A stretch of 64,000 nucleotides of DNA. It comes from an uncultured Candidatus Saccharibacteria bacterium (GTDB taxonomy: Bacteria > Patescibacteriota > Minisyncoccia > Phycocordibacterales > UBA2100). The notes beneath the pieces were generated by a model. The model saw only the letters and a program-made list of their open reading frames with translations, ran no database searches and had not been told where the DNA came from. Positions 13,152 to 63,514 of this stretch are shown here, piece after piece. The first letter of the stretch is position 1, and every line of letters starts with the position of its first letter. The stretch spans positions 475,984 through 539,983 of the forward strand of contig CAYNRJ010000001.1 of assembly GCA_964399865.1 (NCBI GenBank), given 5' to 3'. The translations under genes and the position numbers were made by a program.

Positions 13152-13252
13152 TCAATTAATTATAGCGCGCAAAATCTCAAAGAAATGTCTGATGCAAAAT
13201 AAATGTGCAAACATTGAAATGCATTTTCAAATTCAAAAGCGAGGGGTACTGC

Positions 13253-13333
13253 TCTCTGAGGGTCTTCGCAGGCGCGACGGCGCCGAGACCGAGCGCTGCA
13301 CCAGCAGGCGCAGATAGCGACCCGAGGAGAGTA
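13253..13333. repeat. GC-rich ~80-nt intergenic element, copy B
   Basis: Near-identical to 8025-8103; terminal stem here is CTCTC/GAGAG, a compensatory change relative to copy A; lies between pilC and pilB. Confidence 0.7.
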
Positions 13334-13350
13334 GTACTCTGAGCGCCCCC

Positions 13351-43629: not shown

Positions 43630-44772
43630 TTAGAATGGGTTTCGAGGACCGTTACGTATTTCGAAGTGGACGTGGGGACCCGTGGTCTTTCCGGTAAGAC
43701 CTACGTAGGCGATCACCTCGCCTTTAGCAACAGATTGTCCTACTGACACGACTACACTTGAAGCGTGTGCATAGAGGGTCTGGCTACCGTTGCTGTGACG
43801 AATTACAACATATGCACCATAACCACCGTTCCAACCTGAGTTACGAGCTACGATGACATCGCCATCGGCGGAAGCGAGAATTGGCGTACCGATAGGAGCA
43901 GCGAGGTCAACACCGTTGTATCCATGGATACCCTGAGTGCGGACACCACCGGAGAGAGGGCGCATGTAATAGCCGGCAGATATTGAACTGTTTACGCTTC
44001 CTCCTCCAGAGACTGAGGTTGAGCGTGGAGCAACGGCAACCTTTACTTCGCCGTCCGGAATGATTATTTGAAGCCCCACAGCGAGAGCTGATTCATCAGA
44101 AAGACCGTTGAAACTCGCGATTTCCTGAGCATCACCGCTAAAGTTCTTCGCAATTGATGCAAGAGTATCGTTCTTCTTAACGATGTATTTAACCCCTGTT
44201 ACAGGGAGAATTGTTAGGGTTTGACCAACGCGGATAGTGTCTCGAACTGGGATGTCGTTCGCCCAACGGATGGTGTTTGCGGATACTCCAAACATCTGGG
44301 CAATACCGGAAATCGTGTCTCCCTCTCGTACCACATAGATACTGATAGTGGAGTTTTTAGCTTTCTCGATGTCGGCCATGGTGCCTGATGGGCCTTCTTC
44401 GGGTACAAGAGCTGAATTGTCTACGATTGTGATCTCTCCACCACCTCGAGCTGGAGTTGGGGATATGTTCATCGCGGGTCGCAGAAGCGCCATCGTTTGC
44501 ACGTTGCCGGAGGCCGCCGAATGAAGCTCGCCGCCCTTATTACCCTTGATTGTAGCCACAATACCGCCAAAAAGACTGGCCCGCGTGGTCGCGGGCATAA
44601 AGGTTCCAGCTATAAGAATGAGGGAAACGAGCACTACGAAATAGGTACGCAAGTTTCCCGCAATTGCGGAATTTCGGGGTTTCTTTGTCGTTCTATAGGA
44701 GCTTGCCGGGCTCGGATAGAAGTCTTGTGGGATGTTTTCGATAAGCCATTTAGGCCTTCCTCCATAGCTCAC
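43630..44772 (-). CDS. LysM-domain M23-family peptidase (cell-wall hydrolase/activator)
   Basis: N-terminal TM; two LysM repeats ('YVVREGDTISGIAQMFGVSANTIRWAND', 'YIVKKNDTLASIAKNF'); C-terminal M23 domain with 'HVHFEIR'. Confidence 0.8.
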   Translation of the reverse strand: MSYGGRPKWLIENIPQDFYPSPASSYRTTKKPRNSAIAGNLRTYFVVLVSLILIAGTFMPATTRASLFGGIVATIKGNKGGELHSAASGNVQTMALLRPAMNISPTPARGGGEITIVDNSALVPEEGPSGTMADIEKAKNSTISIYVVREGDTISGIAQMFGVSANTIRWANDIPVRDTIRVGQTLTILPVTGVKYIVKKNDTLASIAKNFSGDAQEIASFNGLSDESALAVGLQIIIPDGEVKVAVAPRSTSVSGGGSVNSSISAGYYMRPLSGGVRTQGIHGYNGVDLAAPIGTPILASADGDVIVARNSGWNGGYGAYVVIRHSNGSQTLYAHASSVVVSVGQSVAKGEVIAYVGLTGKTTGPHVHFEIRNGPRNPF

Positions 44773-48234: not shown

Positions 48235-49125
48235 ATGAAATTACTTCGTGCTCATTTCATTCTTTTTCTCATTGGAGTTACCGCACTACTCCTTGTGATC
48301 GGTGCGTTCGCACTAAAAGAATATTCGCCAGCTCAAAATACACCTAGGACAATCGCATGGGGAGGCCTTGGAGGCACCCCGTATTATCCACTTTCGGGCG
48401 AAAGAGCGATCGAAAGTAATCCTGCAGAGGAGAATATCTACAGCTCAATTCAAAGCGGGCCGCCGTTCTATTATTCAACGACTAACTCGGAAGCGGCGGA
48501 TGAGGAAGATGACACGTTCGACGTCGACGCGTTTCTTGCATATCTCAAGGGAGAAACGAGGACATCAGAAACTGCGGTCGAGGAGGAAAAACCGCTTTCG
48601 TTTCTTGAGAATCCATACTCATTTATCACAAATGGGGTCTCCTTCCCGAGTAGCTCCCTTACGAAAGAACGCACACCAATACAGCAGGCTTTATATGAGT
48701 ACGGAAATAAGGCTGGAAAGATCATTCAGACATTTGAAGACTCGAATCAAAACATGGCTGATGTAGTGCAGGCACAATCTGAAGATCCGGAAGACCCTCT
48801 TAAGGTCGCTGCCCTTATAAAACTAGCGGACTCTCTAGCAGATGTAGGGGTTTCACTAGAAGAACTCTCCTCTGTTCCAGCAGAAGCGGCCAATCAGAAC
48901 GCCAAACTTGCGACAAGCTATAAAGATATGGGTGCAAAACTTGCGCTCGTGCCTAACGCCATGACCGAAGACAGTAGGGTAGAGACAATGCTTACCTATA
49001 ATGCTGCCGCCGAATCGTTCGTCACAAATTACGTGGCTATCGTCACTCTTTTCTCGATCATGGAGGTCACATTTTCTCCTGATGAGCCGGGTAGTGTGTT
49101 CACTTTCACGATGACAGGGTTTTAA
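48235..49125 (+). CDS. Bitopic membrane protein (N-terminal TM plus ~260-aa extracytoplasmic domain); first gene of the T4SS-like operon, possibly VirB8-like
   Basis: 'MKLLRAHFILFLIGVTALLLVIGAFALK' TM anchor; the architecture (short N-terminus, 1 TM, ~230-260 aa domain) matches VirB8-type proteins, but no sequence signature was recognised. Confidence 0.5.
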   Translation: MKLLRAHFILFLIGVTALLLVIGAFALKEYSPAQNTPRTIAWGGLGGTPYYPLSGERAIESNPAEENIYSSIQSGPPFYYSTTNSEAADEEDDTFDVDAFLAYLKGETRTSETAVEEEKPLSFLENPYSFITNGVSFPSSSLTKERTPIQQALYEYGNKAGKIIQTFEDSNQNMADVVQAQSEDPEDPLKVAALIKLADSLADVGVSLEELSSVPAEAANQNAKLATSYKDMGAKLALVPNAMTEDSRVETMLTYNAAAESFVTNYVAIVTLFSIMEVTFSPDEPGSVFTFTMTGF

Positions 49126-49185
49126 GCCTCGACTGTCCACTCATTGTCCCCACGAAATCCCCAGGAAGCGGTTATACTTTATGCA

Positions 49186-50001
49186 ATGAAAGTAAGCGCG
49201 TTGAAGGGCGTGAGTTTTTCGCGTATGGCGATAACTGCAACACTGTCGATCGCAGCTGTTATTGGAGTTTCTGCGTGGCAACTAACAGCCCCTCTCCGGA
49301 GCGGGGGTGAAGAACTCGCTACCGGGAGTAACGATTCCACTATCACGATGGGTCGGACTGGAGATCCGGATCGTCAGTTTGATTGGCAGAAAAGTCTTGA
49401 GGGAATCTCGTCCGACGATCCAGATGGACTTTCAAATATCGGTGAAAATGTTGTTGAAACTTTGGTTGGTTCATACGTCGCGCTAAAAGACGCGGGAGTG
49501 TATACGCCAGAACAAGGGGCACAAATAGCTGGTGTAATTGCAACAGATCTCAAGGCCGATATTTCATTCCGTCTCTATGACACTGACGACATTAAGACCG
49601 ACACAAGCACTTCTTTCACTCGTTCGCTCGCATATCGAAGCGATATGCGCATCGCCCTCGAGCCTCTTTTGGAAAATCCTACGTATGAACTCGAGATACT
49701 CGGAGGATATATGGAGACTAAGGACCCAAAGTATCTCGCTGAACTGGAGAACATGGTCCGAAATTACAATGTTGCTATCGAGAATGCCGCACAAGTAGTC
49801 GTTCCGAAAGACGCGATCACATACCATATCAGTGTTCTGAACGCACTCTCTGAATTCGGCGCGACACTCGCACAAATGGTTAAGCACATTGACGATCCCT
49901 TCGCTTCTGCGGCGCTCCTTCGGACATTCAATGGCGCAGAGGCAAAAATGTTTACTTCGTTTGATGAGCTCGCAGACTATTTCCGTAAATCTACCTCATG
50001 A
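49186..50001 (+). CDS. Bitopic membrane protein, distant paralog-like of the upstream gene
   Basis: ORF 49144..50001 trimmed to MKVSALKG; TM 'MAITATLSIAAVIGVSAW'; same architecture as the 48235 gene. Confidence 0.5.
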   Translation: MKVSALKGVSFSRMAITATLSIAAVIGVSAWQLTAPLRSGGEELATGSNDSTITMGRTGDPDRQFDWQKSLEGISSDDPDGLSNIGENVVETLVGSYVALKDAGVYTPEQGAQIAGVIATDLKADISFRLYDTDDIKTDTSTSFTRSLAYRSDMRIALEPLLENPTYELEILGGYMETKDPKYLAELENMVRNYNVAIENAAQVVVPKDAITYHISVLNALSEFGATLAQMVKHIDDPFASAALLRTFNGAEAKMFTSFDELADYFRKSTS

Positions 50002-51593
50002 AAACAAGCTCCCTCATTTTCATACCGTTTAAGTTTGCTATCGCAACAATTACTCTGTTTCTCTTACTGACCTCTTTCGCTCAAGCTCAAACAGATACCT
50101 CAACCACCACTGCAGGATTATCGAGCTCAGGTATATTCGACTGCAACAGTAAAGCCGGAGCTGAGGCGATGAGCAGTGTCGGAACAAAAAGCACGATTCA
50201 AAGCTTATATGTCCCAGTTTCTGACGCAGGAGTAACCTTAAACACCGGATCTTTGGTCTACAAGGAATGTGTTCTCGACCCTATAAACACGCGCATGCGA
50301 GAGAACGCTGCTTTCTCGCACGTTCAACTCGGCATAAAGGCGTTTAACAAGGGGGCTGATGGTGAACCAATGTTTATAAAAGATTACATCGCGAAAGTTT
50401 CGGAGCGCAGCGACAAAACATTCCTACGTACATTTGAAGAAGGGGAGCTTGATACACTCAATCCAGCCTTTAAGGATGAAGTTAAGCGCGCGATCGCTGA
50501 AGATTATAAAACTCAGACCCGTGAGCCGAACAAGGTACTAGAATGTTCGTACAAAGGCGATCTCGCAAAAGTATACGCAGGACAACCGGAAGATATTTGG
50601 GGAGCTATCATGGCCATTGCAGAGCCAGCATGTAATCCGGTTGGAGCTTACAATCTCGCGCAAGAATATATTATAGACAATATCGCATCAGATAAGGAAG
50701 AGATGCTCTTCCGCCTTAATAACAGCAACGCCATCAAAGATGTCCAAACATACAACGAGGAGACCGGGCGATACGAGACCCTCACTCCAGGTATCATCGT
50801 TGCTGAAAATGTTCAGCAACTTATAACATCCGGCTTCCGGCAACTTGAGAACGCCGACGAGATAGGTCAAATGGTTGATGCGCTATATTCTGGCCTCTCC
50901 ACACAAGTAGTTTCCGATACTCGAGGACTCGCGGGAGTAACCGAAGGATTCGCTGGCCAGCCTTCTTATCTCGACCAAATTGGTGACACGCTCCGCAAAA
51001 ACCTTCGCGATGCAGCGGTTAATATAGCTTTGGGAATTCTAAAAGGCGCGAAGCAAACCGAGATTACCTATTTCAATGCATTGAATTCGATTGCACTTAC
51101 CCTAACGGCAACGATAGGGGATCTTCGCCAGGCAGAAGCACTATGTTGGGCAGAAGTAGTACCAAAAGCTCAAGTCTATGCAAGTGCAAATAATATTCAA
51201 ATAACCGTTGCTACTTCAACCCAATTTTCACAAGCGGTTATCAATGCACAGATAACATCTCTCGCTTCAACAACGATAACGGATATACGAAAGAGTGAGA
51301 CCGCTCTCTCCCTCATAGATCATTTAATAGAGGGCATTACGAACACGACTTCTCCGGATGCCCAGCGTGTAGCTCTTCAACAGTTAGATTCTCTCGTGGC
51401 ACAAGGAGCCCTACACGGAGAATACGATGCCCAGCAGGCAGTGAAGCGAAGAGATGAGATAAAGCCGGCAATGGAAAATCTCGTGGAAGATACGGTTGTA
51501 GCATGGGCTGATTCTGCTGACGTAAATGTCGGCTGGTGTAACGTCAATAATCCTGCGGTCGCCCAAAAATGGGTCGAGGAGTGGAGAAACTGA
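49998..51593 (+). CDS. Secreted protein (signal peptide), unknown function, T4SS-like operon
   Basis: 'MKTSSLIFIPFKFAIATITLFLLLTSFAQA' signal peptide; 531 aa; 4-nt overlap with the upstream gene. Confidence 0.55.
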   Translation: MKTSSLIFIPFKFAIATITLFLLLTSFAQAQTDTSTTTAGLSSSGIFDCNSKAGAEAMSSVGTKSTIQSLYVPVSDAGVTLNTGSLVYKECVLDPINTRMRENAAFSHVQLGIKAFNKGADGEPMFIKDYIAKVSERSDKTFLRTFEEGELDTLNPAFKDEVKRAIAEDYKTQTREPNKVLECSYKGDLAKVYAGQPEDIWGAIMAIAEPACNPVGAYNLAQEYIIDNIASDKEEMLFRLNNSNAIKDVQTYNEETGRYETLTPGIIVAENVQQLITSGFRQLENADEIGQMVDALYSGLSTQVVSDTRGLAGVTEGFAGQPSYLDQIGDTLRKNLRDAAVNIALGILKGAKQTEITYFNALNSIALTLTATIGDLRQAEALCWAEVVPKAQVYASANNIQITVATSTQFSQAVINAQITSLASTTITDIRKSETALSLIDHLIEGITNTTSPDAQRVALQQLDSLVAQGALHGEYDAQQAVKRRDEIKPAMENLVEDTVVAWADSADVNVGWCNVNNPAVAQKWVEEWRN

Positions 51594-51601
51594 TCTTGCA
51601 T

Positions 51602-54142
51602 ATGGAATACCTAAAACGAATGCTAGGACATCATAAAATAGGAATACTTGCGTCACTCTTCATCGCAATCGTGTTCTCCCCCTTTGTATTCAGTAATAAC
51701 AGCTTCGAGGTAAGCAGCGCGCTGGCAGCAACTCCTGAGGAAATCGCCGCAAGCGAAGGATTTCAAGCAATAATGGCAAACGTTCCGGCAGAAAATCTTG
51801 CCGCCTTCAACGGGTGCTTACAAAACCCTCCAAGTGGTCCATCGATCAATGAAAAACCTAAAGAGGGGCTCGCACTTTTTGCGAGCTATTGTTATGACCT
51901 CACTGTGGGCGAGCTACCTGACGAGTTAGTGCCGGGTTTTAAGCCACCCGAAGGCTATGTGGGCGGATGTGGCCTCAACTTTGGTTGTTATTGGAAAAAA
52001 CTCGTTGCAACCATTGCTTGGATACCGTCTGGACCAAGCGCATGGCTCCTTACTACTGTAGGGCAGTTCTTCAATTACCTCGTCGATCATACTATTATTG
52101 ACTTCAAGGGGACCTTAGAACAAATGGGGGAGAGTATTGATAATGCATGGACTGCATTCCGAGATATTGCGAACATTGTCATCATCGGAATGTTTGTATT
52201 CATTGCTCTCTCTCTAATCCTCGGGCTCAAGGAATACGGCGAGCGGAAAATGATAGCGCGCGTACTCATTGTTGCGGTGTTAATCAACTTCAGCTTACTT
52301 TTCACAAAGTTAATTATCGACGCTTCACACTTTACTGCGTATCAGTTCTACAATGCAGCTGGGAATATTGGTGGCCCCGTTGCCGACGAGGCCAGAGCTG
52401 CGGTTGACATTGAAGACGAAACAATTCCTGCGGCGGAGCCAGGTATCGCAGGTCAATTCTTAGCTGCTATGAGTATTACCCGGGTTGGGGAGATACATAA
52501 CATACTTTTTCAGATGCAGCAGAATGGTAATGGGATGTGGAACACAATACTCTTTGGCTTTTTTATGGGCGTTATGTTTCTCCTTGCTGCACTTGTGCTC
52601 TTATACGGCTGTTTCTTACTGATTGCACGGGGGCTACTCTTAGTATTTCTGATGATGACGGCACCTCTTGCTTTCGCGAGTTGGCTCATCCCCAAATTCG
52701 CAGGAGATGGTTGGAGCAAATGGTGGGATTCACTCTTACGCACTGCGATATTTGCACCTCTTCTGATGATTTTCTTGTGGGCTTCTCTCACTATAGCGAC
52801 TCAAATCAACGAGGCAGGCGAGGGACTGGGAGCGCTGATCGATCATCCTGAAAACGGCATCGGTATCGGGGCTCTTTTCAACTATGTCTTCGTGCTTGGG
52901 TTGCTTTTCATGTCCATAAAACTTGCAAGCAAATTCTCCGGCACAATTGCAGGATTCAGCGTCGCTGCAATGGCTACTGCCGCACCAATCACTCTCGGAT
53001 CGCGAGCGCTCGCAGCTCCACTCCGCGGTATCGGAGGTAAATATGCAACCAAATATCAAGAAAGTCGTATGGATCAAGCAAAGGCCGCTAGAAGGAACGT
53101 CGGGGTCGCTACTGGACTTAGAACGAACGCGTTGAAAGCTGCGCACGATTTCCGAGAAGCTGGTCTGCATGGCTTTGCAGATAGGGAACAGGCGGAGGCT
53201 AAGAAACAACAAAAGATTGCGGAGGAACAGAAGAAAATTGCGGCAATCAAAACAAAACGCGCGATGCGAGGTGCGACAGTTGCCGGGAACAAGATGAATC
53301 TTATGAATACTGAGACCGCTAAGAAGGTGCTCGGGGCAGTGGGGGTTACAGGGTTCATGGCTGGAGCGACGCCAAAGGAAGTACAGAGTTATCACGGAAA
53401 AATTGAAGAGAGAGCCAAGGCGGCGGAGAAAATTGCATCAAAACTTGCTCCAAAGCAAGAAGAAATCGATAAAGCGCGGGATCTTGCGGGAGACAGAATG
53501 AAAGAACAGCGCAAAATTGAAGAGGCACAACTGGAGGCAACAAGAAGGGTGGCTGAGGAGGAGGCCAATAACACAAAGGCTCTTGAGTATTTGCCTGAGC
53601 AATTGGAAACTGCCATTCGAGAATCTACACGAGTTAAGGCAGACGCTGCACGAAATAAGACTGCGATCGATGCCAGTAGGAGGGCAGGCACTATAAGCGC
53701 AGATGAACATCAACGACAATTAAGGATCGAGAATGATCGTGTTAAAGCCGCAGACGCCGCCGTAAAAACTGTTAAAGATCGCATTGACGTTATCGATCAG
53801 CCCGTGAAAGATATTGCAAAAAATATCGAAAAGTTCCGTGGAGAAACAAAAGGTGCAATCGAGAAAGCCAAACATGAAGGGGGTCAGGCTGTTGTAGAGA
53901 GCGGAGCCGGGGTAGCCGAAGTAATCGGTCGACGGTACGGAGGTACTCTGACTCGTATAGCTGGAGCCCTTACTGGAGCCAATGCTCACGTCGCTCACGA
54001 AACGAGAGAAATGTACCTTAAGAATCGCGGTGCGATGAATAAATTAAAGGATATTCTTAAGGGTGCAGGTGTTACGGAGGGAGAAGCTGCGCATGGAGGG
54101 GGCTCAGCACCTGCAGGGGGCGGGGGAGGCGATCATCACTAA
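51602..54142 (+). CDS. Polytopic membrane protein, VirB6/TrbL-like, with a long Lys/Ala/Glu-rich coiled-coil C-terminal tail
   Basis: ORF 51569..54142 (start 51569 or 51602); at least 8 hydrophobic helices in residues ~200-480; an extracytoplasmic Cys-containing loop (GGCGLNFGCYWKK); C-terminal ~350 aa of KAA/EEQ coiled-coil ending GGGSAPAGGGGGDHH. Sits two genes upstream of the VirB3-like + VirB4 pair, as in Gram-positive T4SS. Confidence 0.55.
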   Translation: MEYLKRMLGHHKIGILASLFIAIVFSPFVFSNNSFEVSSALAATPEEIAASEGFQAIMANVPAENLAAFNGCLQNPPSGPSINEKPKEGLALFASYCYDLTVGELPDELVPGFKPPEGYVGGCGLNFGCYWKKLVATIAWIPSGPSAWLLTTVGQFFNYLVDHTIIDFKGTLEQMGESIDNAWTAFRDIANIVIIGMFVFIALSLILGLKEYGERKMIARVLIVAVLINFSLLFTKLIIDASHFTAYQFYNAAGNIGGPVADEARAAVDIEDETIPAAEPGIAGQFLAAMSITRVGEIHNILFQMQQNGNGMWNTILFGFFMGVMFLLAALVLLYGCFLLIARGLLLVFLMMTAPLAFASWLIPKFAGDGWSKWWDSLLRTAIFAPLLMIFLWASLTIATQINEAGEGLGALIDHPENGIGIGALFNYVFVLGLLFMSIKLASKFSGTIAGFSVAAMATAAPITLGSRALAAPLRGIGGKYATKYQESRMDQAKAARRNVGVATGLRTNALKAAHDFREAGLHGFADREQAEAKKQQKIAEEQKKIAAIKTKRAMRGATVAGNKMNLMNTETAKKVLGAVGVTGFMAGATPKEVQSYHGKIEERAKAAEKIASKLAPKQEEIDKARDLAGDRMKEQRKIEEAQLEATRRVAEEEANNTKALEYLPEQLETAIRESTRVKADAARNKTAIDASRRAGTISADEHQRQLRIENDRVKAADAAVKTVKDRIDVIDQPVKDIAKNIEKFRGETKGAIEKAKHEGGQAVVESGAGVAEVIGRRYGGTLTRIAGALTGANAHVAHETREMYLKNRGAMNKLKDILKGAGVTEGEAAHGGGSAPAGGGGGDHH

Positions 54143-54147
54143 TAGGT

Positions 54148-54723
54148 ATGGATACAAAAATGACTCAAGAAGAATTAAATCAGAAATTGCGCGAGCGATT
54201 TCAAGAGATTCCTAAAGTACTCCAAGAGGCTATTACCTCTGCAAACGTAGAGAAACAGTTACGAGAACTCGCCACAAAACATAAGTTGCATGTGGACATG
54301 TGGCAATTACTCGAGAATGAGGTCATCGTTACACTCCTCGGTCTTCAGCCAGCAGATGACCTCGCCGCCAACCTCCAAAACGACCTCGGCCTACCCAAAG
54401 AAGCATCGATTGCGCTCGCAAGAGATGTATCTACGATAGTTTTCGCGCCAGTAAGACAAGAGCTCGAGCGGACACTGGAACATCCTGAGGCAAAGTCCGA
54501 AGAGGAGAGTGACGTTGATACCGTAAGGACACAAATACTTGAGCAAAAGCCTACACCAACTAGTACTTCACTGCCTCCGTTGGTAAAACCAGCGACCCCA
54601 CCCCCACAACCACCCACTCAAAAGATTGAAAGAGGTCCTGCGTCGGGCGCATATGTGCCCGGAGAAGTATCGAGCGCGCGAAAATCGATCGTGGATGATC
54701 CGTACAGAGAAGCGCCGCAATGA
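54148..54723 (+). CDS. Hypothetical protein with a Pro-rich C-terminal region, T4SS-like operon
   Basis: 191 aa; no TM; 'PPLVKPATPPPQPPTQ'. Confidence 0.45.
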   Translation: MDTKMTQEELNQKLRERFQEIPKVLQEAITSANVEKQLRELATKHKLHVDMWQLLENEVIVTLLGLQPADDLAANLQNDLGLPKEASIALARDVSTIVFAPVRQELERTLEHPEAKSEEESDVDTVRTQILEQKPTPTSTSLPPLVKPATPPPQPPTQKIERGPASGAYVPGEVSSARKSIVDDPYREAPQ

Positions 54724-54852: not shown

Positions 54853-55353
54853 ATGCAATTTCAGGTACCACAATTCATCGAGGTGGAGGATAAAATCTTC
54901 GGTCCTCTCACATTCAAGCAATTTGTGTATGTCGCAGGAGGAGCCGGGGCAGCCTATCTTTTTTGGCGAACCCTCCCATTCTTTTTTTCCGTCCCCCTCA
55001 TCATGGGGATTGGAGCCCTTGCCGCAAGCTTAGCCTTCTTTAAATACAACGGGCGCCCTTTTATTCTCGCGATGGAGCATGGCTTCTACTATCTTGTACG
55101 AACAAAACTATATTTGTGGAACAACGCGGCAAAAACTGCAAAACCTAGGAAATTAGCGACGAAAGCGACACTACCTACTAGTCAGGTATATGTGCCTACA
55201 CTTTCACAAAGCAAATTACACGAACTGGCATGGAGTTTGGACATTAAAGAACGTATTGCAGGAGGCACCGTTTCAAGCGAAGAGCGAGAAGCGGCCGCCC
55301 CGACAGATAGCATCGTCGCTCCAATACGCACCGCCCGCGATGCGAGAGTATAA
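54853..55353 (+). CDS. Small two-TM protein, VirB3/PrgI-like (directly precedes the VirB4 homolog)
   Basis: 166 aa; 'FKQFVYVAGGAGAAYLFWRTLPFFFSVPLIMGIGALAASLAFF' hairpin of two helices; position and topology as for VirB3-family proteins. Confidence 0.5.
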   Translation: MQFQVPQFIEVEDKIFGPLTFKQFVYVAGGAGAAYLFWRTLPFFFSVPLIMGIGALAASLAFFKYNGRPFILAMEHGFYYLVRTKLYLWNNAAKTAKPRKLATKATLPTSQVYVPTLSQSKLHELAWSLDIKERIAGGTVSSEEREAAAPTDSIVAPIRTARDARV

Positions 55354-55358
55354 AATCT

Positions 55359-56045
55359 ATGCCACCAGGACTTGAAAACTTACGCGACAGAAAGAAATCC
55401 ACTCAAGATTTCGTGCCCGTGCGTGAAGTGCGGGATGGAGTCGTCGTACTTAAGGATGGAGGATTACGCGCAATTCTTCTCGCATCTTCTCTTAACTTCG
55501 CACTGAAATCAGAAGACGAACAGACTGCGTTCATCACGCAATTCCAAAGCCTTCTAAACTCACTGGATTTTTCTGTGCAGATTTTCATAGAGTCTCGCAT
55601 GCTCGATATAAGACCTTACATTGCAACTCTCGAGGAAGCATATAAAAAGCAGCTCGACGATCTGATGCGAATCCAGATCCGTGAATATATAGAATTCATC
55701 AAGAGCTTTACTGAAGCTGCAAATGTCATGACAAAGAACTTCTTCGTCGTCGTGCCGTATTCCGGCGGTCCACAGATCGGCAAGAGTGGGGGAGGGCCCT
55801 CACTCCCATGGAGCAAAAAAAAGAACAGCACTGAGGAGGCGAACAAGAGCTTCGAAGAGCAGGTGACTCAGCTCGAACAAAGAGTATCTGTCGTGCAGCA
55901 AGGTCTGATCCGCACAGGTGTCCGCACTGTTCAGTTAGGAACCGAGGAGGCAATCGAGCTTCTCTACAAAATGTTCAACCCTGGCGAAGAAGGGAAACCG
56001 ATGTCACTTAACAATACCGAAGAGGCGCCCGCGACCAGCCAATAA
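55359..56045 (+). CDS. VirB4/TraC/TrsE-family protein, N-terminal portion (ends at an in-frame TAA)
   Basis: 'QDFVPVREVRDGVVVLKDGGLRAILLASSLNFALKSEDEQ' matches the conserved N-terminal region of VirB4/TrsE-type ATPases; the ORF stops at TAA 56043-56045 and the next ORF starts 3 nt later in the same frame. Confidence 0.65.
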   Translation: MPPGLENLRDRKKSTQDFVPVREVRDGVVVLKDGGLRAILLASSLNFALKSEDEQTAFITQFQSLLNSLDFSVQIFIESRMLDIRPYIATLEEAYKKQLDDLMRIQIREYIEFIKSFTEAANVMTKNFFVVVPYSGGPQIGKSGGGPSLPWSKKKNSTEEANKSFEEQVTQLEQRVSVVQQGLIRTGVRTVQLGTEEAIELLYKMFNPGEEGKPMSLNNTEEAPATSQ

Positions 56046-56048
56046 TGT

Positions 56049-57998
56049 ATGGGATTTAAAGACTTACTGCCATTTGGAAAGAAACCAACGCCGCCCGAGG
56101 CGCGAGTTCTTCCTGTGTTACCTGAGGAAATATACGAAACGGGAGTTCTTGACCTCCAGGATGTCATCGCACCGCACGCACTCCGTGTTAATTCACGTGA
56201 GCTCGACCTCGGCGAGAAGATCGCGCGAACTTTTTTCGTGATCTCTTACCCCCGCTTCCTCACGACAGGATGGTTCGCCCCGATCATCAACATGGACAAG
56301 GTCTTGGATATTGCCATCTACGTCCACCCGATGGACACAAATGAGATGCTTCGAAAGTTCCAGAAAAAAGTGGCTGAGGTGCAGAGTCAGATATCGACAC
56401 GTGAAGAGAAGGGGATGGTGCGAGACCCTATGCTCGATACTGCATACAGCGACTTGGAAACTTTGCGTGACTCTCTGCAGCAGGCACAGGAGCGTATTTT
56501 CGAAGTGGGATTGTACTTAACAATTTACGGTAATACCCGCGAGGAAATCGATAAGGTGGAATCTGAGGTGCGTTCAATTCTCGAATCGCGTCTCGTATAC
56601 ATTCGTCCTGCACTATTCCAACAGGAGAGTGGGTTCAGAAGTGTCTTGCCGCTCGCTACCGATGAGCTTGATGTCCATACAAAACTCAACTCCGCTCCTC
56701 TCTCTTCGATCTTTCCATTCATATCATTCGACCTTACGAGCGATCGCGGCATCCTCTATGGCGTCAACCGCCACAATTCTTCTCTCATTCTCTTCGATCG
56801 TTTCTCGATGGAAAACTACAACTCGGTCACCTTCGCAAAATCCGGTGCCGGCAAGTCGTACATGACCAAGCTCGAGATATTGCGATCTCTCATGTTCGAA
56901 ACCGAGGTTATCGTAATCGACCCAGAACGCGAGTACGAATATCTCGCAGAAACAGTGGGCGGGCGATACTTCAACATCTCACTCTCCTCTGAGCACCACA
57001 TAAATCCATTCGATCTTCCTGTCCCTCGCGAGGATGAAAACCCATCAGATATTTTGCGCAGTAACATCATTACTCTCGTAGGACTTTTCCGCATTATGCT
57101 CGGGGGCCTTACGCCTGAAGAAGATGCGATCATTGATAAAGCCATAACCGAAACCTACGCATTGAAAGACATCACACCGGACGCGAACTTTGCCGCAATA
57201 GAGCCACCGCTTCTCTCTGACTTTGAACTGGTACTTTCCGGACTAGAAGGATCGGAGTCGCTCGTCGCTCGTCTTTCTAAATATACGAAAGGAACTTGGT
57301 CGGGATTCATGAATAGACCAACGAACGTCGACATGAATAAGAGATTGATTGTTTTCTCGGTCCGCGACATGGAGGATGACTTGAAACCAATTGCGATGTA
57401 CATCATCACACATCACATTTGGAATGCGGTTAGGAAAGAATTGCGTAAACGTCTTCTCGTCATCGATGAGGCGTGGTGGATGATGCGTTCAGAAGATACC
57501 GCATCATTTCTCTATTCCGTTGCTAAACGAGGACGTAAATACTATCTCGGAATTTCAACCATTACCCAAGACGTATCCGACTTCCTCAATTCGCCGTATG
57601 GAGTTCCGATGATAACTAACTCTTCTATCCAAATACTTCTACGCCAATCTCCGACATCCGTTGACCTCGTGCAATCAACATTTAAATTATCCGATGAGGA
57701 AAAATACCTCCTGCTTGAATCCGATGTGGGGGAGGGAATATTCTTTGCGGGCCTTAAACACGTAGCGGTAAAAGTTATCGCATCATACACAGAAGATCAA
57801 ATCATCACGTCCGATCCATCTCAGGTTCTCGCGATCAGGAAAGCTAAGAGGGATCTTGAAGATGCAAATTCAGGTGAAGCACCCCCGCTTCCAGAGGTCA
57901 AAAAAATCCCTGAAATGCCGGATCGCCCAGTTGCGCCCCAAACCCCAGCCGTTCCACCCGCACCAAACATCGCGCCACCCAAAGACATGGCAATATGA
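56049..57998 (+). CDS. VirB4/TraC/TrsE-family T4SS ATPase, central and ATPase portion
   Basis: 649 aa; Walker A 'TFAKSGAGKSYMTKLEI', Walker B 'RLLVIDEAWWMM', 'GISTITQDVSDF' helicase-like motif; in frame with and contiguous to the 55359 ORF, the two together being about 877 aa (typical VirB4 length). Confidence 0.75.
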   Translation: MGFKDLLPFGKKPTPPEARVLPVLPEEIYETGVLDLQDVIAPHALRVNSRELDLGEKIARTFFVISYPRFLTTGWFAPIINMDKVLDIAIYVHPMDTNEMLRKFQKKVAEVQSQISTREEKGMVRDPMLDTAYSDLETLRDSLQQAQERIFEVGLYLTIYGNTREEIDKVESEVRSILESRLVYIRPALFQQESGFRSVLPLATDELDVHTKLNSAPLSSIFPFISFDLTSDRGILYGVNRHNSSLILFDRFSMENYNSVTFAKSGAGKSYMTKLEILRSLMFETEVIVIDPEREYEYLAETVGGRYFNISLSSEHHINPFDLPVPREDENPSDILRSNIITLVGLFRIMLGGLTPEEDAIIDKAITETYALKDITPDANFAAIEPPLLSDFELVLSGLEGSESLVARLSKYTKGTWSGFMNRPTNVDMNKRLIVFSVRDMEDDLKPIAMYIITHHIWNAVRKELRKRLLVIDEAWWMMRSEDTASFLYSVAKRGRKYYLGISTITQDVSDFLNSPYGVPMITNSSIQILLRQSPTSVDLVQSTFKLSDEEKYLLLESDVGEGIFFAGLKHVAVKVIASYTEDQIITSDPSQVLAIRKAKRDLEDANSGEAPPLPEVKKIPEMPDRPVAPQTPAVPPAPNIAPPKDMAI

Positions 57999-59059
57999 AA
58001 AAGGCAGCAGCGCCATTCCTATTTCTTGCGCTTATTTTTTTCTCACTGCTAGTGCCCAGCACTCCTGCCCACGCTCAATTAGTGTTCCCCGGGACAACAC
58101 CAGATCTCGCTCTTGAAGCAGTGCCCGAAAACCCTCGACCGAATTCAAACATTACTCTTCGGATAAGAAGTGTGCTGCTCGACCTCACCCAAAGCGAGAT
58201 CACGTGGTACGTGAATGGCACTGTTACAAGTACTGGTATTGGGATTACTGAAACTAGCGTAGCAACGGGAGCGCTGGGAACAGAGACCCGGGTGCGTGTT
58301 GAAGCAATTGGAGAAGCAGGGAGCGCTTTTGCCGTTGGGGTATTTCGTCCTACTGACATAGATCTTCTGTGGGAGGCTGATTCGTATGTGCCCCCATTTT
58401 ATCGAGGTCGCGCGCTTCCATCTGCGGGAAGTACCGTTCGCTTATTTGCGGTACCTCGATTTACGAGAGTCGGATCTACTTCCTTTTTACCATCGAGTGA
58501 ACTCATGTATACCTGGAAAAGGAACGATCAAACTATTCCAAAGGCATCTGGCTTCGGAAAAGACACGGTCCAAATTGAAACGTCCATTATATCGAGCGGC
58601 GACGTTATATCCGTAGAAATAGCAACCGCAGACGGGATACTGGAAGGATCTGCTTCGGTACGGTTACCTTCGGTAGAACCTTCTCTCGTGTTATACGAAA
58701 ATCATCCAGTCTTCGGGGTTCTGTATCACCGTGGATTGCAGAGCCCTGCCTCAGTCACTGAGTCCGAAACAACATTTATAGCTGTTCCGTATTTCGCGCC
58801 TACTCGAAATCCTGATAACGGGTCACTCATTTATAAATGGCGGGTTGGTAACTCATCTATACCAAGCAGTTTTACGAAACCTAGCGCAATCACAATCAAC
58901 GCAGAGGGAACAAATGGTGTAGCTCTCATACAGCTCGCCGTTACACACGCGTCGAATTTCTTACTGAACATACAGAACGCATGGGCCGTGACTCTCGCTG
59001 GAACAGACACATCAACCACTGTGAGTCCTTTCACGGACCCTTTCACAAGTGGTGAATAA
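57995..59059 (+). CDS. Secreted beta-rich protein (signal peptide, Ig-like repeats), T4SS-like operon
   Basis: 'MKKAAAPFLFLALIFFSLLVPSTPAHA' signal peptide; 4-nt overlap with the VirB4 stop. Confidence 0.55.
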   Translation: MKKAAAPFLFLALIFFSLLVPSTPAHAQLVFPGTTPDLALEAVPENPRPNSNITLRIRSVLLDLTQSEITWYVNGTVTSTGIGITETSVATGALGTETRVRVEAIGEAGSAFAVGVFRPTDIDLLWEADSYVPPFYRGRALPSAGSTVRLFAVPRFTRVGSTSFLPSSELMYTWKRNDQTIPKASGFGKDTVQIETSIISSGDVISVEIATADGILEGSASVRLPSVEPSLVLYENHPVFGVLYHRGLQSPASVTESETTFIAVPYFAPTRNPDNGSLIYKWRVGNSSIPSSFTKPSAITINAEGTNGVALIQLAVTHASNFLLNIQNAWAVTLAGTDTSTTVSPFTDPFTSGE

Positions 59060-60317
59060 TACTATGCGTATACGTATACCGACATCACTCCTCCGTTACA
59101 CTCTGATACTTCTTGTTGTTTTACTATTTGGCATCCTCTTGTGGTGGTATTTCTTCCTCGGAGCCAAACAGGATTCACTGGAAGCGACTGATGACGGAAG
59201 GGGAGCAGGAGTAGAGGCGCCTTCTTTCGGAAATGCGATCGGGAGCACGTACGGCAATATTGTTTCAAGCATAGGAGCGGCCATATCAAACACGAGCGAG
59301 GAAGAGCCTGCCGCTCCACAAACAACCCCGCCTTTATGGCATGCGGCGAAAAGCCCTGTGGCAGGCGCAAGCTTTATTTTAAATGGAACTACGACCGCAA
59401 TCCGCTTCGTAGAACGAGGTACGGGATACGTTCTGGAGGCAAATCCTGAAACAGGGGAGCTTACTCGCATCACGAACACCCTCATACCACGCGTATACGA
59501 AGCTTACGTAGGAGCTAATGGAAGTCTTATTTTGCGAAGCCTGGATGAGGCTGACAATATCGTAACGAGTGCCGGACAAATAGTTGCAACAACTTCTGAA
59601 GATGTCGCACCAAAGCCCCTAGCTTTGCGTCAATTACCCTTAAACATTCGTACGATCGCTCTGCACCCCGAAGGAGAAGAGGTTTTTTATATTGAACCCG
59701 GATACTCTGTGGAAGACGAGTATTCCATTGTTCGGGCCGCATGGAACGGCACCGCGGTTAAACGTATCGGTACGGTGGGTATTTCGGGTTGGCAAGCAAA
59801 GTGGCTCTCCGACGATCGAATAATATTGACACAGAATGCAGGCGGCACATCGAATTATGCATATGAATTAGCGGCAAACGGATCACTCGTGCGCCTCGCA
59901 AATCCCGCAGGCGGACTAGTAGTACTACCTCGTCCAAACTCTAAAGCGTTACTCTATGGCAGTGCCTCGAACGGCTTCCTCCTTTCAGTTCTCACAGATG
60001 CAAACGCGGATCCCAAGACACTTTCTATCCGCACCACCGCTGATAAGTGCGTATGGTCGCCTAGCGCTGTTCTAATTGTGTACTGCGCAGTCCCACAAAC
60101 TCTACCAGGAGCAGATTTCCTAACCGCTAGAGCGCAGGGGACAGAACATACTGCCGACACCTGGTGGAAAATCGATATACGAACAGGTAGAGCAGAAATT
60201 TTACCCGTCGAAACTATGCCTCAAGTGGATGTCGAGAATCCTATAATGGATCCGTCTGGGAAATACCTACTATTTACGAACAGTCGCGATAAATCGCTTT
60301 GGTTGGTACGTATCTAA
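59049..60317 (+). CDS. Membrane-anchored protein with a beta-propeller-like (TolB-like) extracytoplasmic domain
   Basis: TM 'LLRYTLILLVVLLFGILLWWYFF'; repeated beta-strand blades ('GTGYVLEANPETGELTRITN', 'GKYLLFTNSRDKSLWLVRI'); the start may be at 59064. Confidence 0.5.
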   Translation: MVNNTMRIRIPTSLLRYTLILLVVLLFGILLWWYFFLGAKQDSLEATDDGRGAGVEAPSFGNAIGSTYGNIVSSIGAAISNTSEEEPAAPQTTPPLWHAAKSPVAGASFILNGTTTAIRFVERGTGYVLEANPETGELTRITNTLIPRVYEAYVGANGSLILRSLDEADNIVTSAGQIVATTSEDVAPKPLALRQLPLNIRTIALHPEGEEVFYIEPGYSVEDEYSIVRAAWNGTAVKRIGTVGISGWQAKWLSDDRIILTQNAGGTSNYAYELAANGSLVRLANPAGGLVVLPRPNSKALLYGSASNGFLLSVLTDANADPKTLSIRTTADKCVWSPSAVLIVYCAVPQTLPGADFLTARAQGTEHTADTWWKIDIRTGRAEILPVETMPQVDVENPIMDPSGKYLLFTNSRDKSLWLVRI

Positions 60318-63300
60318 AGTATATGAGCACGACACTTACTCTGAAGAAAATATTGGTCGGCGGCGCTCTTGTACTACCGTGTCTCATTAGCACGTTCACC
60401 CTCTCCCTTCCTTCTGTCGAGGCAGCGGACATATCTCCTTCGTGTGCTGATCGAGCAGACGGATTCATCCCGCTTGCGTGTGTCGATAATACTGTACTTG
60501 GAGATTTATACGCCACGGGTGATGTTGCGCCCGATGCGGAATTTAGTGGAAATCTTACCGACTACGTTGGAAGAATATTCTTCTTCGCTATCACAATCGG
60601 GGGAGTGCTTGCAGTCCTTCGTGTTGCCTGGGCTGGGTTCTTATACATAACAAGTGATCTGTGGCACACAAAGGAACGCGCGAAAGAGATGCTACGGGAA
60701 ACCGTACTCGGACTCTGTCTTTTGCTTTCAGTCTGGCTTATCTTGAACCAGATCAACCCGCGGATTCTAAGTCTCGACTTTAATTTCACACCGCCTGCGG
60801 AAGATGTCGGGGCAGATGATCCTGATTCACCTGGACCTGCCACTCCACAGCCAACCCAGGCACAGATGCGAGTGATGCAGACCTTGGGGACCTACCGATC
60901 TTCGTGGAACCTCTCACCACTACCAGCTCAGAGTTGCGCCTCTCCAACTTCACTATCGATGGGTAATTACCTTTGTTTCGAAAGCTGGCATCACTGCGAA
61001 GCGGTTGCTGAGGTAGAAGGCGCTAGCTGCACATTTACGCCGACCGCCGAGATCCCAAGCCCATTTTTTGATCCTACCCTCGGACCGAACGGGGGATACT
61101 GGCGCCCAACTATAGTCATTTGGAACGGTGACAGATACCATTCTGAAGAGGATTGTCTTGCGGCTAGACCCCAATACAACGAATGCGAATCTGTCGCATA
61201 TGATGCTCCCATAGGCACATACTACCCGAACGCCGAAACCCCACCTGGCTGGTGTTATTTAGATACATGGTTACCAGATGGCAAATATTGTGACCCTTCG
61301 TGGACTGAAGATGCGTGCCGCGCAGCAGGGAATGCTTACGGCTCAAACATCGGAAGCCGGTGCGATGAGTCTGGCACCGAAAATTCTTATGTTAGTACAT
61401 ACACCGAGATACAAAATGATTCACTAACTTCGGGCGCGCCGCGATATTGCATTCTAGAGTCCGGTGCATACCGCTGCTTCCTTTCCTCAGAGAGCTGTAA
61501 CGAGGCAGGCGATGACTGCTATAGAATCGGGAATTGGGAAGTGAAGCTTAATGGAGTTACGGCCATTCTCGATACGAGAGGTACTGTGAACCGATTTCAG
61601 ACCGCAGCGCTTAGTTGGGAGCCGTCCGTTGGGGCGGATCCGTCTGTAATTGAAGACGCTCGTGAATCTTTTAGAAATTACTGCGAGACTAGGGCAAGCG
61701 CTACGTACGTTGCGGCTGAGGGAAATGAAACCCGTGACTTCTGCCCAGTCTCCATTCCTGGTCCGAATACCGAAAATTTCTACACCTCATGGAATGCGGT
61801 TCCCGAAAACAAGTGGTGCTACAACCCTGTCGGCACTGAATTTTATTGCCCCGGTAACGAAAATGCGTGTATAGCTGCGGTCGCAGAAATTGGATATACA
61901 GACGTTTCCTGTGAATACAAACCTGCGAGATCAACAATAACTCAACCTGGCTTTGTATGCGGACAAGGCGGGCCAAACCAATTCTATTGCGGATTTAAAA
62001 ACGTCGCAGCATGCGCCGCATACGACACTCCACCTCTTTCTAATTGCGCACTAATACCAGAAATTCCTGACCCTACCTACACATACGCGCCGGCAAATCC
62101 AAATCAAACTGATCCGCCACAGACAAATACCCCAGAAGAAGTGGGGGCCGACCCAGCAGTCACCTATGACAGTAACGTTATACATGACACCCCGATTCTC
62201 GGATACACATGCTACCTACTATCAACCTCAAGATACCAATGTTATCGAGGAGGACCGATTGCTAACCCACCACCGCACTCACAGGCATTCAGTCCGGGAC
62301 CGCTGACTGGGTATTACTGCTTCTCGATGAACAACACATCGTCTCCGTATTACAGTTGTTACACGGGAGCGATAACGTGCGCTCAAGCTGCACAAGCAGT
62401 TGGTAAAACATGCGCCCTCGCATCTCTCCTGCGAGAACCAGGTCCGACTTTACAATGGAGTCAATCGCCGCGCTTAGAACAATATTGTTTCGCAGCAAAT
62501 GAGGGCGGATATGGATGTGTCGCAAATGAAGCGGCATGTAACACTTTCGCTGTCAGGGAAGGGAAAACCTGTACCCTTGCGACATTAAGAAATCAAAATG
62601 GTAGTACGGTGAGCACGCCCGCATCACAACCCGGAGTAGGATTACCTCCTCCAACGAGAACGGGGGCTACGTCCGTAATTCCATCGGCGGAAACGCCAAC
62701 CGAAACACTTGATGAATTACCTCCAAAAGACAACGTGTCGTTGTGGGGTCGCGCAATACAACGTCTTTTTGAGCTATGGGAATTACTACGACATCCTTCC
62801 GAATGGACGGCTGAATTCCGACAAATGGTGGAAGGTTTCCTAGGTCGGGAAGAGGAAACAACTATTGAAGCTGAGGTTGTAAATCCTCCAGCGGAGCAAC
62901 CTGTTGCTCAAATATCCACGCCGCCTAACACTCCTGTTGCTCAAACATATCCCTATTTCCAGCTCCCGGCAGGACAGTGGTGTCATAGGGTAGAGGGAAG
63001 TAATCCTCGCGCATATCAATGTTCCGGGGTGCGCGCCGCCTGTGAGGAAGGCGGCCAAACCTGTTTCCGAGCGGATGCGGCATCAACAATCCGTTCCGCA
63101 TCAGGAGGATCCGTGAGCTCTGCGATTGCGGCGGGCGGAGGGTATTGCACCGTACTTACTAGAGGAGTAAGCAACGCGATGTACTGTGGTTTCGCATCTG
63201 CCGAATCCTGTACTGAGTTTGTTCTAAATTCGAGCAGCCAAACTCAGACGACGACATCTTGTGACACTTATTGTCCAGCAGAGCTTCAAGCAGGGGCCGC

Positions 63301-63514
63301 ATCTCAAGGGGCAACGTATCAATGCAATATTACAGTCGGATCCTGGTGTTATGAAATATCGAAACCGACAAGCGCAACAACATTTGGCAGACGATATCAT
63401 TGCGCCGTAAATGAAAATATCTGTAACACTGCTCGCTCAGCGAACAATCCCGCGCCGATCAATAACAGCACCTGTCTTCAGTTTGGACCTTACGGACCTA
63501 CCCTTACGTCTTGA
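60299..63514 (+). CDS. Giant cell-surface protein: N-terminal VirB2/TrbC-like pilin module (signal peptide plus 2 TM helices) fused to a ~900-aa ectodomain made of about 10 cysteine-rich repeat modules
   Basis: Signal peptide '...LPCLISTFTLSLPSVEA'; 'YVGRIFFFAITIGGVLAVLRVAWAGFLYITS...RAKEMLRETVLGLCLLLSVWLILNQI' matches TrbC/VirB2 hairpin topology; repeats of the form [YWF]-x-C-x(7-11)-C-x(4-6)-C-x(7-14)-C (e.g. YLCFESWHHCEAVAEVEGASC, QYCFAANEGGYGCVANEAACNTFAVREGKTC). An alternative start lies at 60323. Confidence 0.6.
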   Translation: MVGTYLKYMSTTLTLKKILVGGALVLPCLISTFTLSLPSVEAADISPSCADRADGFIPLACVDNTVLGDLYATGDVAPDAEFSGNLTDYVGRIFFFAITIGGVLAVLRVAWAGFLYITSDLWHTKERAKEMLRETVLGLCLLLSVWLILNQINPRILSLDFNFTPPAEDVGADDPDSPGPATPQPTQAQMRVMQTLGTYRSSWNLSPLPAQSCASPTSLSMGNYLCFESWHHCEAVAEVEGASCTFTPTAEIPSPFFDPTLGPNGGYWRPTIVIWNGDRYHSEEDCLAARPQYNECESVAYDAPIGTYYPNAETPPGWCYLDTWLPDGKYCDPSWTEDACRAAGNAYGSNIGSRCDESGTENSYVSTYTEIQNDSLTSGAPRYCILESGAYRCFLSSESCNEAGDDCYRIGNWEVKLNGVTAILDTRGTVNRFQTAALSWEPSVGADPSVIEDARESFRNYCETRASATYVAAEGNETRDFCPVSIPGPNTENFYTSWNAVPENKWCYNPVGTEFYCPGNENACIAAVAEIGYTDVSCEYKPARSTITQPGFVCGQGGPNQFYCGFKNVAACAAYDTPPLSNCALIPEIPDPTYTYAPANPNQTDPPQTNTPEEVGADPAVTYDSNVIHDTPILGYTCYLLSTSRYQCYRGGPIANPPPHSQAFSPGPLTGYYCFSMNNTSSPYYSCYTGAITCAQAAQAVGKTCALASLLREPGPTLQWSQSPRLEQYCFAANEGGYGCVANEAACNTFAVREGKTCTLATLRNQNGSTVSTPASQPGVGLPPPTRTGATSVIPSAETPTETLDELPPKDNVSLWGRAIQRLFELWELLRHPSEWTAEFRQMVEGFLGREEETTIEAEVVNPPAEQPVAQISTPPNTPVAQTYPYFQLPAGQWCHRVEGSNPRAYQCSGVRAACEEGGQTCFRADAASTIRSASGGSVSSAIAAGGGYCTVLTRGVSNAMYCGFASAESCTEFVLNSSSQTQTTTSCDTYCPAELQAGAASQGATYQCNITVGSWCYEISKPTSATTFGRRYHCAVNENICNTARSANNPAPINNSTCLQFGPYGPTLTS

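Follow-up and report, generated by a model that had tools for sequence, protein, structure and literature searches.

In a 64,000-nt window of contig CAYNRJ010000001.1 (assembly GCA_964399865.1, positions 475,984 to 539,983), we examined a plus-strand gene for a large membrane protein with a long hydrophilic tail that lies within a gene cluster for a type IV secretion system (T4SS), and we interpret its product as an extended subunit of the VirB6 type. According to the list of open reading frames (ORFs), the gene is part of a single unbroken frame on the plus strand, 51569..54142, of 857 amino acids (aa). The ATG at 51602, which gives an 846-aa protein, stands 13 nt past a GGAGA and 8 nt past the stop codon of the upstream gene; alternative starts are found at 51569 and 51620, and residue numbering throughout refers to the 846-aa form. 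A previous reading of this DNA made from its letters only (hereafter the sequence-only reading) had proposed an ORF at 51602-54142, which is real and encodes these 846 aa. The database copy begins at the next methionine and is 840 aa long, and an identical product occurs in several independent assemblies, so the tail and the C-terminal ending are not assembly artefacts. Antisense ORFs overlapping the coding sequence, such as 52736-53395 on the minus strand, were taken to be chance ORFs. The gene and its parts, all on the plus strand, are as follows:

51602..54142, plus strand: whole gene, extended VirB6-like T4SS subunit, 846 aa plus stop (ORF list, start context)
51602..51700, plus strand: basic N-terminus (MEYLKRMLGHHK) and hydrophobic anchor or signal S0, aa 1-33 (hydropathy)
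51701..51979, plus strand: poorly conserved region with C72, C97 and C123, aa 34-126 (AlphaFold confidence, pLDDT, below 50)
51980..52942, plus strand: VirB6-fold helical core, S1-S7, aa 127-447
52943..53041, plus strand: Ala/Gly-rich junction S8 between core and tail, aa 448-480, conserved, consensus ..I.GF..A....A.P..LG.R.AA
53042..54076, plus strand: basic helical domain of the tail, modelled as long antiparallel hairpins, aa 481-825
53282..53437, plus strand: best-conserved block of the tail, aa 561-612 (column conservation, 112 homologs)
54077..54139, plus strand: Gly-rich disordered C-terminal peptide ending DHH, aa 826-846 (AlphaFold pLDDT below 50)

Hydropathy, computed for the protein and for 112 aligned homologs, delimited the hydrophobic segments S0 (aa 13-33), S1 (132-152), S2 (188-207), S3 (221-240), S4 (314-336), S5 (344-364), S6 (381-400) and S7 (422-443). 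These eight segments agree with the 'at least 8 helices' of the sequence-only reading, are conserved across the 112 homologs and exceed the five hydrophobic helices expected as a minimum for VirB6; S1 is weak in the target protein and hydrophobic in most homologs. A hydrophobic 15-mer lies within the first 60 aa in 101 of 111 homologs. Four cysteines stand ahead of S1 (C72, C97, C123 and C129, the last sitting three residues into the helical core part), with family conservation only for C97 (107/112) and its conserved partner C129 (100/112); family members usually have four cysteines in this N-terminal region, and the count is even in 82 of 112. The sequence-only reading had also described a CxxxxC loop: a cysteine loop is present, but its spacing is Cx5C (C123-GLNFG-C129). 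From hydrophobicity and charge we infer that the Cys-bearing region, aa 34-126, is extracytoplasmic. Within the core, which is strongly conserved, W183, R187, D188, N191, N229-F230-S231, Y335, R343, P364, W374, P386 and G433 are invariant.

When the structure was compared with 48,164 chains, the best match was VirB6 itself (TrwI), 93% of that chain being covered, and DotA came third, with no transporter family ranked above VirB6; the protein has the three-dimensional fold of VirB6. It is encoded in a T4SS cluster beside virB3 and virB4, and it fits the definition of an extended VirB6 (a core plus a large hydrophilic domain; PMC12857230), with the core at aa 127-447 and a tail of 366-376 aa. 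A VirB6-type subunit with this extended layout is what the sequence-only reading had suggested, and both the fold match to TrwI/VirB6 and DotA and the conserved spot beside PrgI/VirB3 and VirB4 bear it out. The results of sequence comparison weigh on the opposite side. The TrbL/VirB6 hidden Markov model (HMM) PF04610, named as a check in the sequence-only reading, gave no match at E<=1 to the query or to 57 scanned homologs, alignment of the core profile with a PrgH-family profile by hhalign reached a probability of 0.25% (the PrgH profile being shallow, with members at least 43% identical), and a search of PDB sequences with the family profile did not retrieve TrwI. Against the single sequences of TcpH and PrgH, the family profile stayed below 1% (0.4% for TcpH), and a homolog search with TcpH found only copies at least 93% identical. 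In control scans PF04610 matched PrgH (9.9e-7) and failed to match TcpH, an accepted VirB6-like protein, so the missing match does not disqualify the target. Because of the fold match, the fixed position by VirB3/VirB4 and the failure of TcpH in the same scan, we hold it very probable that the target is a VirB6-type subunit whose sequence has diverged past current HMMs.

An unrelated polytopic transporter or channel that merely adjoins T4SS genes, and is no component of the system, would suit the lack of any Pfam, NCBIfam or PDB-sequence match to VirB6, and Pfam and NCBIfam scans of the target returned only sub-threshold noise (YoqO, NPV_P10 and SMC). The YoqO-like matches (PF14037) recur below the cut-off in 9 of 58 family members, over S2-S3 at aa 182-243 (about 52145-52330) with a best E of 0.0018, and are probably hydrophobic-helix noise. 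We consider such a transporter extremely improbable, given the structural ranking above and the fact that in about 70 of 80 genomes the target keeps its place in the T4SS gene order. The surrounding genes are:

43630..44772, minus strand: LysM + Peptidase_M23 cell-wall hydrolase at the locus border (Pfam; same gene at the same position in the relatives L003 and L004)
48235..51593, plus strand: three conserved upstream genes of 296, 285 and 531 aa (no Pfam match; syntenic in 68-75 of 80 loci)
54148..54723, plus strand: conserved 191-aa gene between the target and PrgI (no Pfam or NCBIfam match; 73 of 80 loci)
54853..55353, plus strand: PrgI/VirB3-like protein (PF12666, 5.8e-11, 43.2 bits against a cut-off of 27)
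55359..57998, plus strand: split VirB4, a TrsD/VirB4-N-terminal-like piece at 55359-56045 and the VirB4 ATPase at 56049-57998
57995..63514, plus strand: two conserved genes of 354 and 422 aa (synteny) and a VirB2-like pilin-domain gene (PF18895 T4SS_pilin, 1.9e-7, aa 85-150)

Among 80 species-level GTDB loci gathered with the core profile, the order of three upstream genes, target, 191-aa gene, PrgI, TrsD, VirB4, two genes and pilin is held wherever the contig reaches, in 66-75 of 80 for the central genes. PrgI, the TrsD-like piece and VirB4 keep their order in L003, L004 and 66-71 of the 80, and in L003 and L004, which share the gene order, the cluster abuts yidC-rnpA-rpmH-dnaA. The two VirB4 halves, a 228-aa piece and a 649-aa ATPase, lie 3 nt apart; the former matches NCBIfam TrsD below the cut-off (6.4e-8) and the latter the VirB4-like CD1110 family of NCBIfam (6.5e-107, 358.6 bits against a cut-off of 325) as well as P-loop_TraG. 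This split agrees with the TrsD pattern reported for Patescibacteria, and the locus is the chromosomal, origin-proximal Patescibacteria T4SS of PMC12102498.

A search for homologs of the target yielded 392 hits, every one labelled hypothetical and belonging to a metagenome genome of Kaiserbacteria, Parcubacteria or Paceibacteria. With few exceptions they are 700-950 aa long, and a precomputed Pfam domain (PF26044, unidentified) was present in one of 120 among the matches listed. An exhaustive profile search with the core only found 18,202 clusters of 50% identity at E<=1e-3 and 3,374 at E<=1e-30; the best 150 of the 18,202 are mostly 700-950 aa. Database entries of about 500-530 aa were considered as natural tail-less forms and dismissed: in locus L085 (6001-8356) the VirB6-like gene is split into a 526-aa ORF followed by a 217-aa ORF in the tail's place, so that the short entry reflects a split or an error.

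The target's own tail runs from about aa 471/481 to 846 and consists largely of A (17%), K (10%), G (10%), E (10%) and R (8%). It holds KIAEEQKKIAAIK and ERAKAAEKIASK, its C-terminus reads ...HGGGSAPAGGGGGDHH, and the protein end is GGGSAPAGGGGGDHH; the Lys/Ala/Glu-rich tail with KAAEK and EEQKK strings and a Gly-rich His end was found as the sequence-only reading described it. In the AlphaFold model the tail is ~85% helical, with pLDDT of 90-96 over roughly aa 600-800, and hydrophobic periodicity of 3.5-3.6 stands 5-6 standard deviations above shuffled sequences at aa 596-665 and 701-780. The coiled coil of the sequence-only reading stands as far as the tail is helical and coiled-coil-like; the monomer model consists of antiparallel hairpins, and a parallel coiled coil is not proven. 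Searches of PDB sequences with the single sequence and the profile gave only compositional coiled-coil matches to the tail (tropomyosin, keratin and a NadA-type adhesin chimera). We also compared it with ESCRT-III, PspA and Vipp1; it does not belong to the Snf7 or PspA_IM30 HMM families, and homology to ESCRT-III/PspA was dismissed as a generic hairpin match.

Tail length is 321-462 aa in the 112 homologs (median 363), and over 75 complete ORFs taken from species-representative genomes the median is 349 aa; the tail is a family feature, with a poorly conserved sequence and a conserved length. Its best-conserved block, aa 561-612, has the consensus A.s.fN.M.T...K...k..G..g..aG...k..kgfa...k.rA.aAak.A. 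Net charge is neutral to positive throughout the family (median +10.5), and cysteine is absent from the tail in 111 of 112 homologs. Histidine, which makes up 0.95% of family residues, is the final residue in 38 of 112 database homologs and 32 of 75 species loci (34-43%), followed in frequency by proline. The last 15-25 residues are disordered and rich in Gly/Pro/Ala/Ser/Thr/Asp, with Pro/Thr-rich stretches at the C-terminus of many members; several family tails are His/Asp/Gly-rich (for example ...HDDHGGGAAHH). We know of no C-terminal signal that accounts for the terminal histidine, and a role in metal binding or partner docking is a guess.

These properties bear on another reading, which goes back to the secreted or extended appendage suggested in the sequence-only reading: the tail, or the protein as a whole, would be an appendage or effector that is released or translocated, being cleaved from the core and delivered to the host cell. 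Such a fate has been proposed in the literature for extended VirB6 proteins of Rickettsiales (PMC7648143), and the conserved junction at aa 448-480 together with the flexible C-terminal peptide and its conserved last residue could be a signal. However, no cleavage motif was identified in the protein, searches of the tail for DNA tandem repeats (TRF) and internal protein repeats (self-BLAST) found none, and both this non-repetitive make-up and the stable length across the 112 homologs are unlike the repeat extensions of Rickettsiales. Moreover, the tail is modelled as a well-packed, co-evolving helical domain at the high confidence given above, and no observation sets it apart from a structural domain. 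We regard release as quite unlikely.

On which side of the membrane the tail lies was estimated by family-wide statistics with our own scripts and a biological hydrophobicity scale (Hessa et al. 2005). In most homologs the segments S0-S7 are membrane-competent (hydrophobicity sums -2.1 to 1.0), and S8 is not (family median 5.9, with 0 homologs at or below 2), so that the junction is probably not a transmembrane helix. Four topology models were compared by their K+R bias: the two with the C-terminus inside scored +1.7 and +3.2, and the two with it outside -1.6 and -0.1. In both positive-bias models the C-terminus shares the side of the basic N-terminus, that is, the cytoplasm, and the segment directly past S7 is K/R-rich. 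An even number of membrane crossings, counting the N-terminal anchor, leads to the same placement. Based on the K+R bias, the predicted-outside conserved Cys pair and the Cys-free, positively charged tail, these sequence statistics suggest that the tail is probably cytoplasmic. The surface or secreted appendage of Rickettsiales type that the sequence-only reading had in mind is not favoured, since the best two topology models place the C-terminus inside and the tail, unlike Anaplasma VirB6-3/-4, has no tandem repeats. Overall, our preferred reading, to which we assign a probability of about 0.6, is that the target is the VirB6-type subunit, with a cytoplasmic tail, of a chromosomal T4SS of monoderm type in a Kaiserbacteria-like Patescibacterium.

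Several points tell against the cytoplasmic placement. The topology estimate is crude, coming from a hydrophobicity scale and our own scripts and not from a trained predictor; the preferred topology leaves a K/R-rich loop, aa 208-220, outside; and Pro/Thr/Gly-rich ends are frequent among surface proteins. A scaffold or docking role for the tail would be a guess drawn solely from the topology estimates and the architecture of TcpH. Of the VirB6 helices in the solved structure of the R388 machine, just alpha1 and alpha2 are inserted in the membrane and the remainder forms a periplasmic dome (PMC9259494, PMC12857230), so a C-terminal extension after the last core helix could lie outside. The same VirB6-type subunit might then carry an extracytoplasmic tail, with only the first helical hairpin as anchor, the rest of the core as a dome outside the membrane, and the ~100 Å hairpins of several copies forming a stalk through the cell wall and S-layer that would replace the absent VirB5, VirB8 and VirB10 parts, with the Gly/Pro-rich His-ended tip facing the host cell. 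DotA, also a structural match, counts as an extended analogue of VirB6 and forms a protochannel that spans the envelope (PMC12857230), the C-termini of the extended Anaplasma VirB6-3 and VirB6-4 are accessible to trypsin (PMC7648143), homologs of VirB8 and VirB5 have for the most part not been detected in Patescibacteria (PMC12102498), and the Pro/Thr-rich C-terminal stretches of many family members fit this arrangement as well. What speaks against it is the worse K+R bias of the models with the C-terminus outside, an S8 too little hydrophobic to cross the membrane alongside S1-S7 that are all hydrophobic enough in most homologs, and a strongly basic tail that is K/R-rich just after S7. In addition, the 191-aa protein encoded next to the target lacks a hydrophobic segment at its N-terminus and yet contains a Pro/Thr-rich stretch, so such composition is not diagnostic of surface location. 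An extracytoplasmic tail is the less likely placement, and it is doubtful that the tail is an oligomeric stalk that takes over the roles of VirB5, VirB8 and VirB10 and carries the channel or pilus base through the envelope, with a His-ended, possibly metal-binding tip turned to the host cell.

Under the preferred reading of a cytoplasmic tail, and on the model of R388 TrwI and Legionella DotA, the core helices would oligomerise, probably as a pentamer, in the middle of the membrane complex, above the VirB3(PrgI)/VirB4 ATPase ring, where it may act both as a protochannel and as the platform on which VirB2-like pilin is assembled. Hydrophobicity and charge suggest that the chain spans the membrane an even number of times, the N-terminal anchor included, leaving the N-terminal Cys-containing region outside the cell and the basic, Cys-free hairpin tail of ~370 aa in the cytoplasm. 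Several tails might then ring the VirB4/TrsD ATPase, acting for the ATPase, for the substrate or for the acidic face of the membrane as a scaffold or a docking arm, and the flexible Gly/Pro-rich end with its often terminal histidine could be a small docking or metal-binding tip; both of these last steps are guesses.

The remainder of the cluster contains further features. KsgA and UvrD are also encoded upstream of the target, and the LysM + Peptidase_M23 hydrolase at the border is a candidate VirB1 analogue. Genes for VirB5, VirB7, VirB9 and VirB10 were not recognised in the locus. Six genes (296, 285, 531, 191, 354 and 422 aa) are as syntenic with VirB4 as the recognised T4SS parts are (55-75 of 80 loci) and have no Pfam match, nor an NCBIfam match in the scan of the 531- and 191-aa genes only; we regard them as candidate carriers of the VirB8-, VirB5- or VirB1-like functions that are 'missing' from the system. 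The 531-aa protein begins with an N-terminal hydrophobic segment; its homolog in L085 (3869-6004) is 711 aa long and has an fn3 domain, evidence in favour of placing this component at the surface. Relatives carry the same VirB4 split (TraC-like PF26593 plus P-loop_TraG). In the Kaiserbacteria relative L003, a 126-aa gene with 23S_rRNA_IVP and bAvd domains (12981-13361) is found between the 191-aa gene and PrgI; bAvd is a type of accessory protein of diversity-generating retroelements. The pilin gene (60299-63514, plus strand) encodes 1071 aa in the window, compared with 147-159 aa for the pilin in the corresponding place of L003 and L004; its extension of ~900 aa is very Cys-rich with recurring aromatic-Cys motifs (for example YYCF, YGCV and WCY). 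This extension looks like an extracellular adhesin-type domain fused to the pilin, and the 1071-aa pilin may be more unusual than the VirB6-like gene.

For no T4SS before that of the Patescibacteria had it been reported that the owner cannot grow without it; this system may also build pili in a monoderm (PMC12857230, PMC12102498), and HMM surveys find Patescibacteria VirB6 in only a minority of genomes. Here, the place of VirB6 in Kaiserbacteria/Paceibacteria loci is taken by an unannotated family of ~18,000 clusters of 50% identity without a Pfam domain, and this family shows the fold of VirB6, which helps to complete the parts list. Extended VirB6 proteins are a recognised subtype with extra domains of no known function (PMC12857230), and the family provides a well-sampled, non-repetitive example for that question, with the conserved tail block, the stable tail length and the frequent terminal histidine as handles for experiment. 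If true, a stalk would be a structurally novel answer in a T4SS reported as essential for the epibiotic growth of outer-membrane-less, wall-bearing Patescibacteria. The constraint on tail length and the terminal histidine are new; the extended VirB6 subtype and VirB6 homologs in Patescibacteria T4SS loci are already known, and the target does not reveal a new kind of system.

Compared with known systems, the target has a structural match in DotA of Legionella Dot/Icm (PDB 9ngy), although the extra domains differ, sequence similarity is absent and a partner gene for IcmX/VirB5 was not recognised in the target locus. Its fold also matches the canonical VirB6, TrwI of plasmid R388 (PDB 7o3v and 8rt9), with identity of only 13-14% and no HMM-level similarity; the TrwI chains are deposited with 261-272 residues, whereas the 846-aa target adds the Cys-bearing N-terminal anchor region and the tail of ~370 aa, and its system is of monoderm type, unlike that of R388. 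The extended VirB6 proteins of Rickettsiales (Rvh; Anaplasma VirB6-1 to -4) have a VirB6 core flanked by large hydrophilic extensions, as in the target, but they match the TrbL/VirB6 domain and occur as several tandem paralogs in diderms, with tandem-repeat extensions of very variable length and C-termini that are surface-exposed by experiment (PMC7648143), while the target is single-copy and repeat-free, with a tail of stable length that is probably cytoplasmic. The T4SS loci described within the same phylum by Quinonero-Coronel et al. 2025 (PMC12102498) have the order VirB6, unknown gene, VirB3, TrsD and VirB4, with VirB6 in the same relative position; for GCA_000505065.1, for example, Table S3 gives gene 531 as VirB6, 533 as VirB3 and 534 as TrsD, and that study reports VirB6 in only 480 proteins with CONJScan profiles and is silent on length, tail or ending.

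With the CD1110 (MPF_FATA-like) type of VirB4, to which that of the target belongs, the usual VirB6 is PrgH, a protein of only 266 aa. In monoderm MPF_FA systems, VirB6 reaches 700-900 aa with extra domains (PMC12857230), and TcpH of pCW3 is grouped in the literature with ConG (ICEBs1) and Orf15 (Tn916). TcpH, 832 aa long, starts with an anchor, followed by a hydrophobic core that reaches about aa 430 and a highly charged tail of 403 aa (K+R 19%, D+E 17%), an architecture nearly identical to that of the target, and like the target it lacks a Pfam TrbL match; in such extended VirB6 proteins of Gram-positive conjugation systems the C-terminal domain is predicted to be cytoplasmic. The two differ in that sequence similarity is undetectable (hhalign 0.4%), the TcpH tail is Lys/Asn/Ile-rich and that of the target Ala/Lys/Gly/Glu-rich, and TcpH is carried on a conjugative element whereas the target system is chromosomal and, in relatives, near the replication origin. 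The closest architectural match to the target is the TcpH-type MPF_FA VirB6, more than the Rickettsiales proteins.

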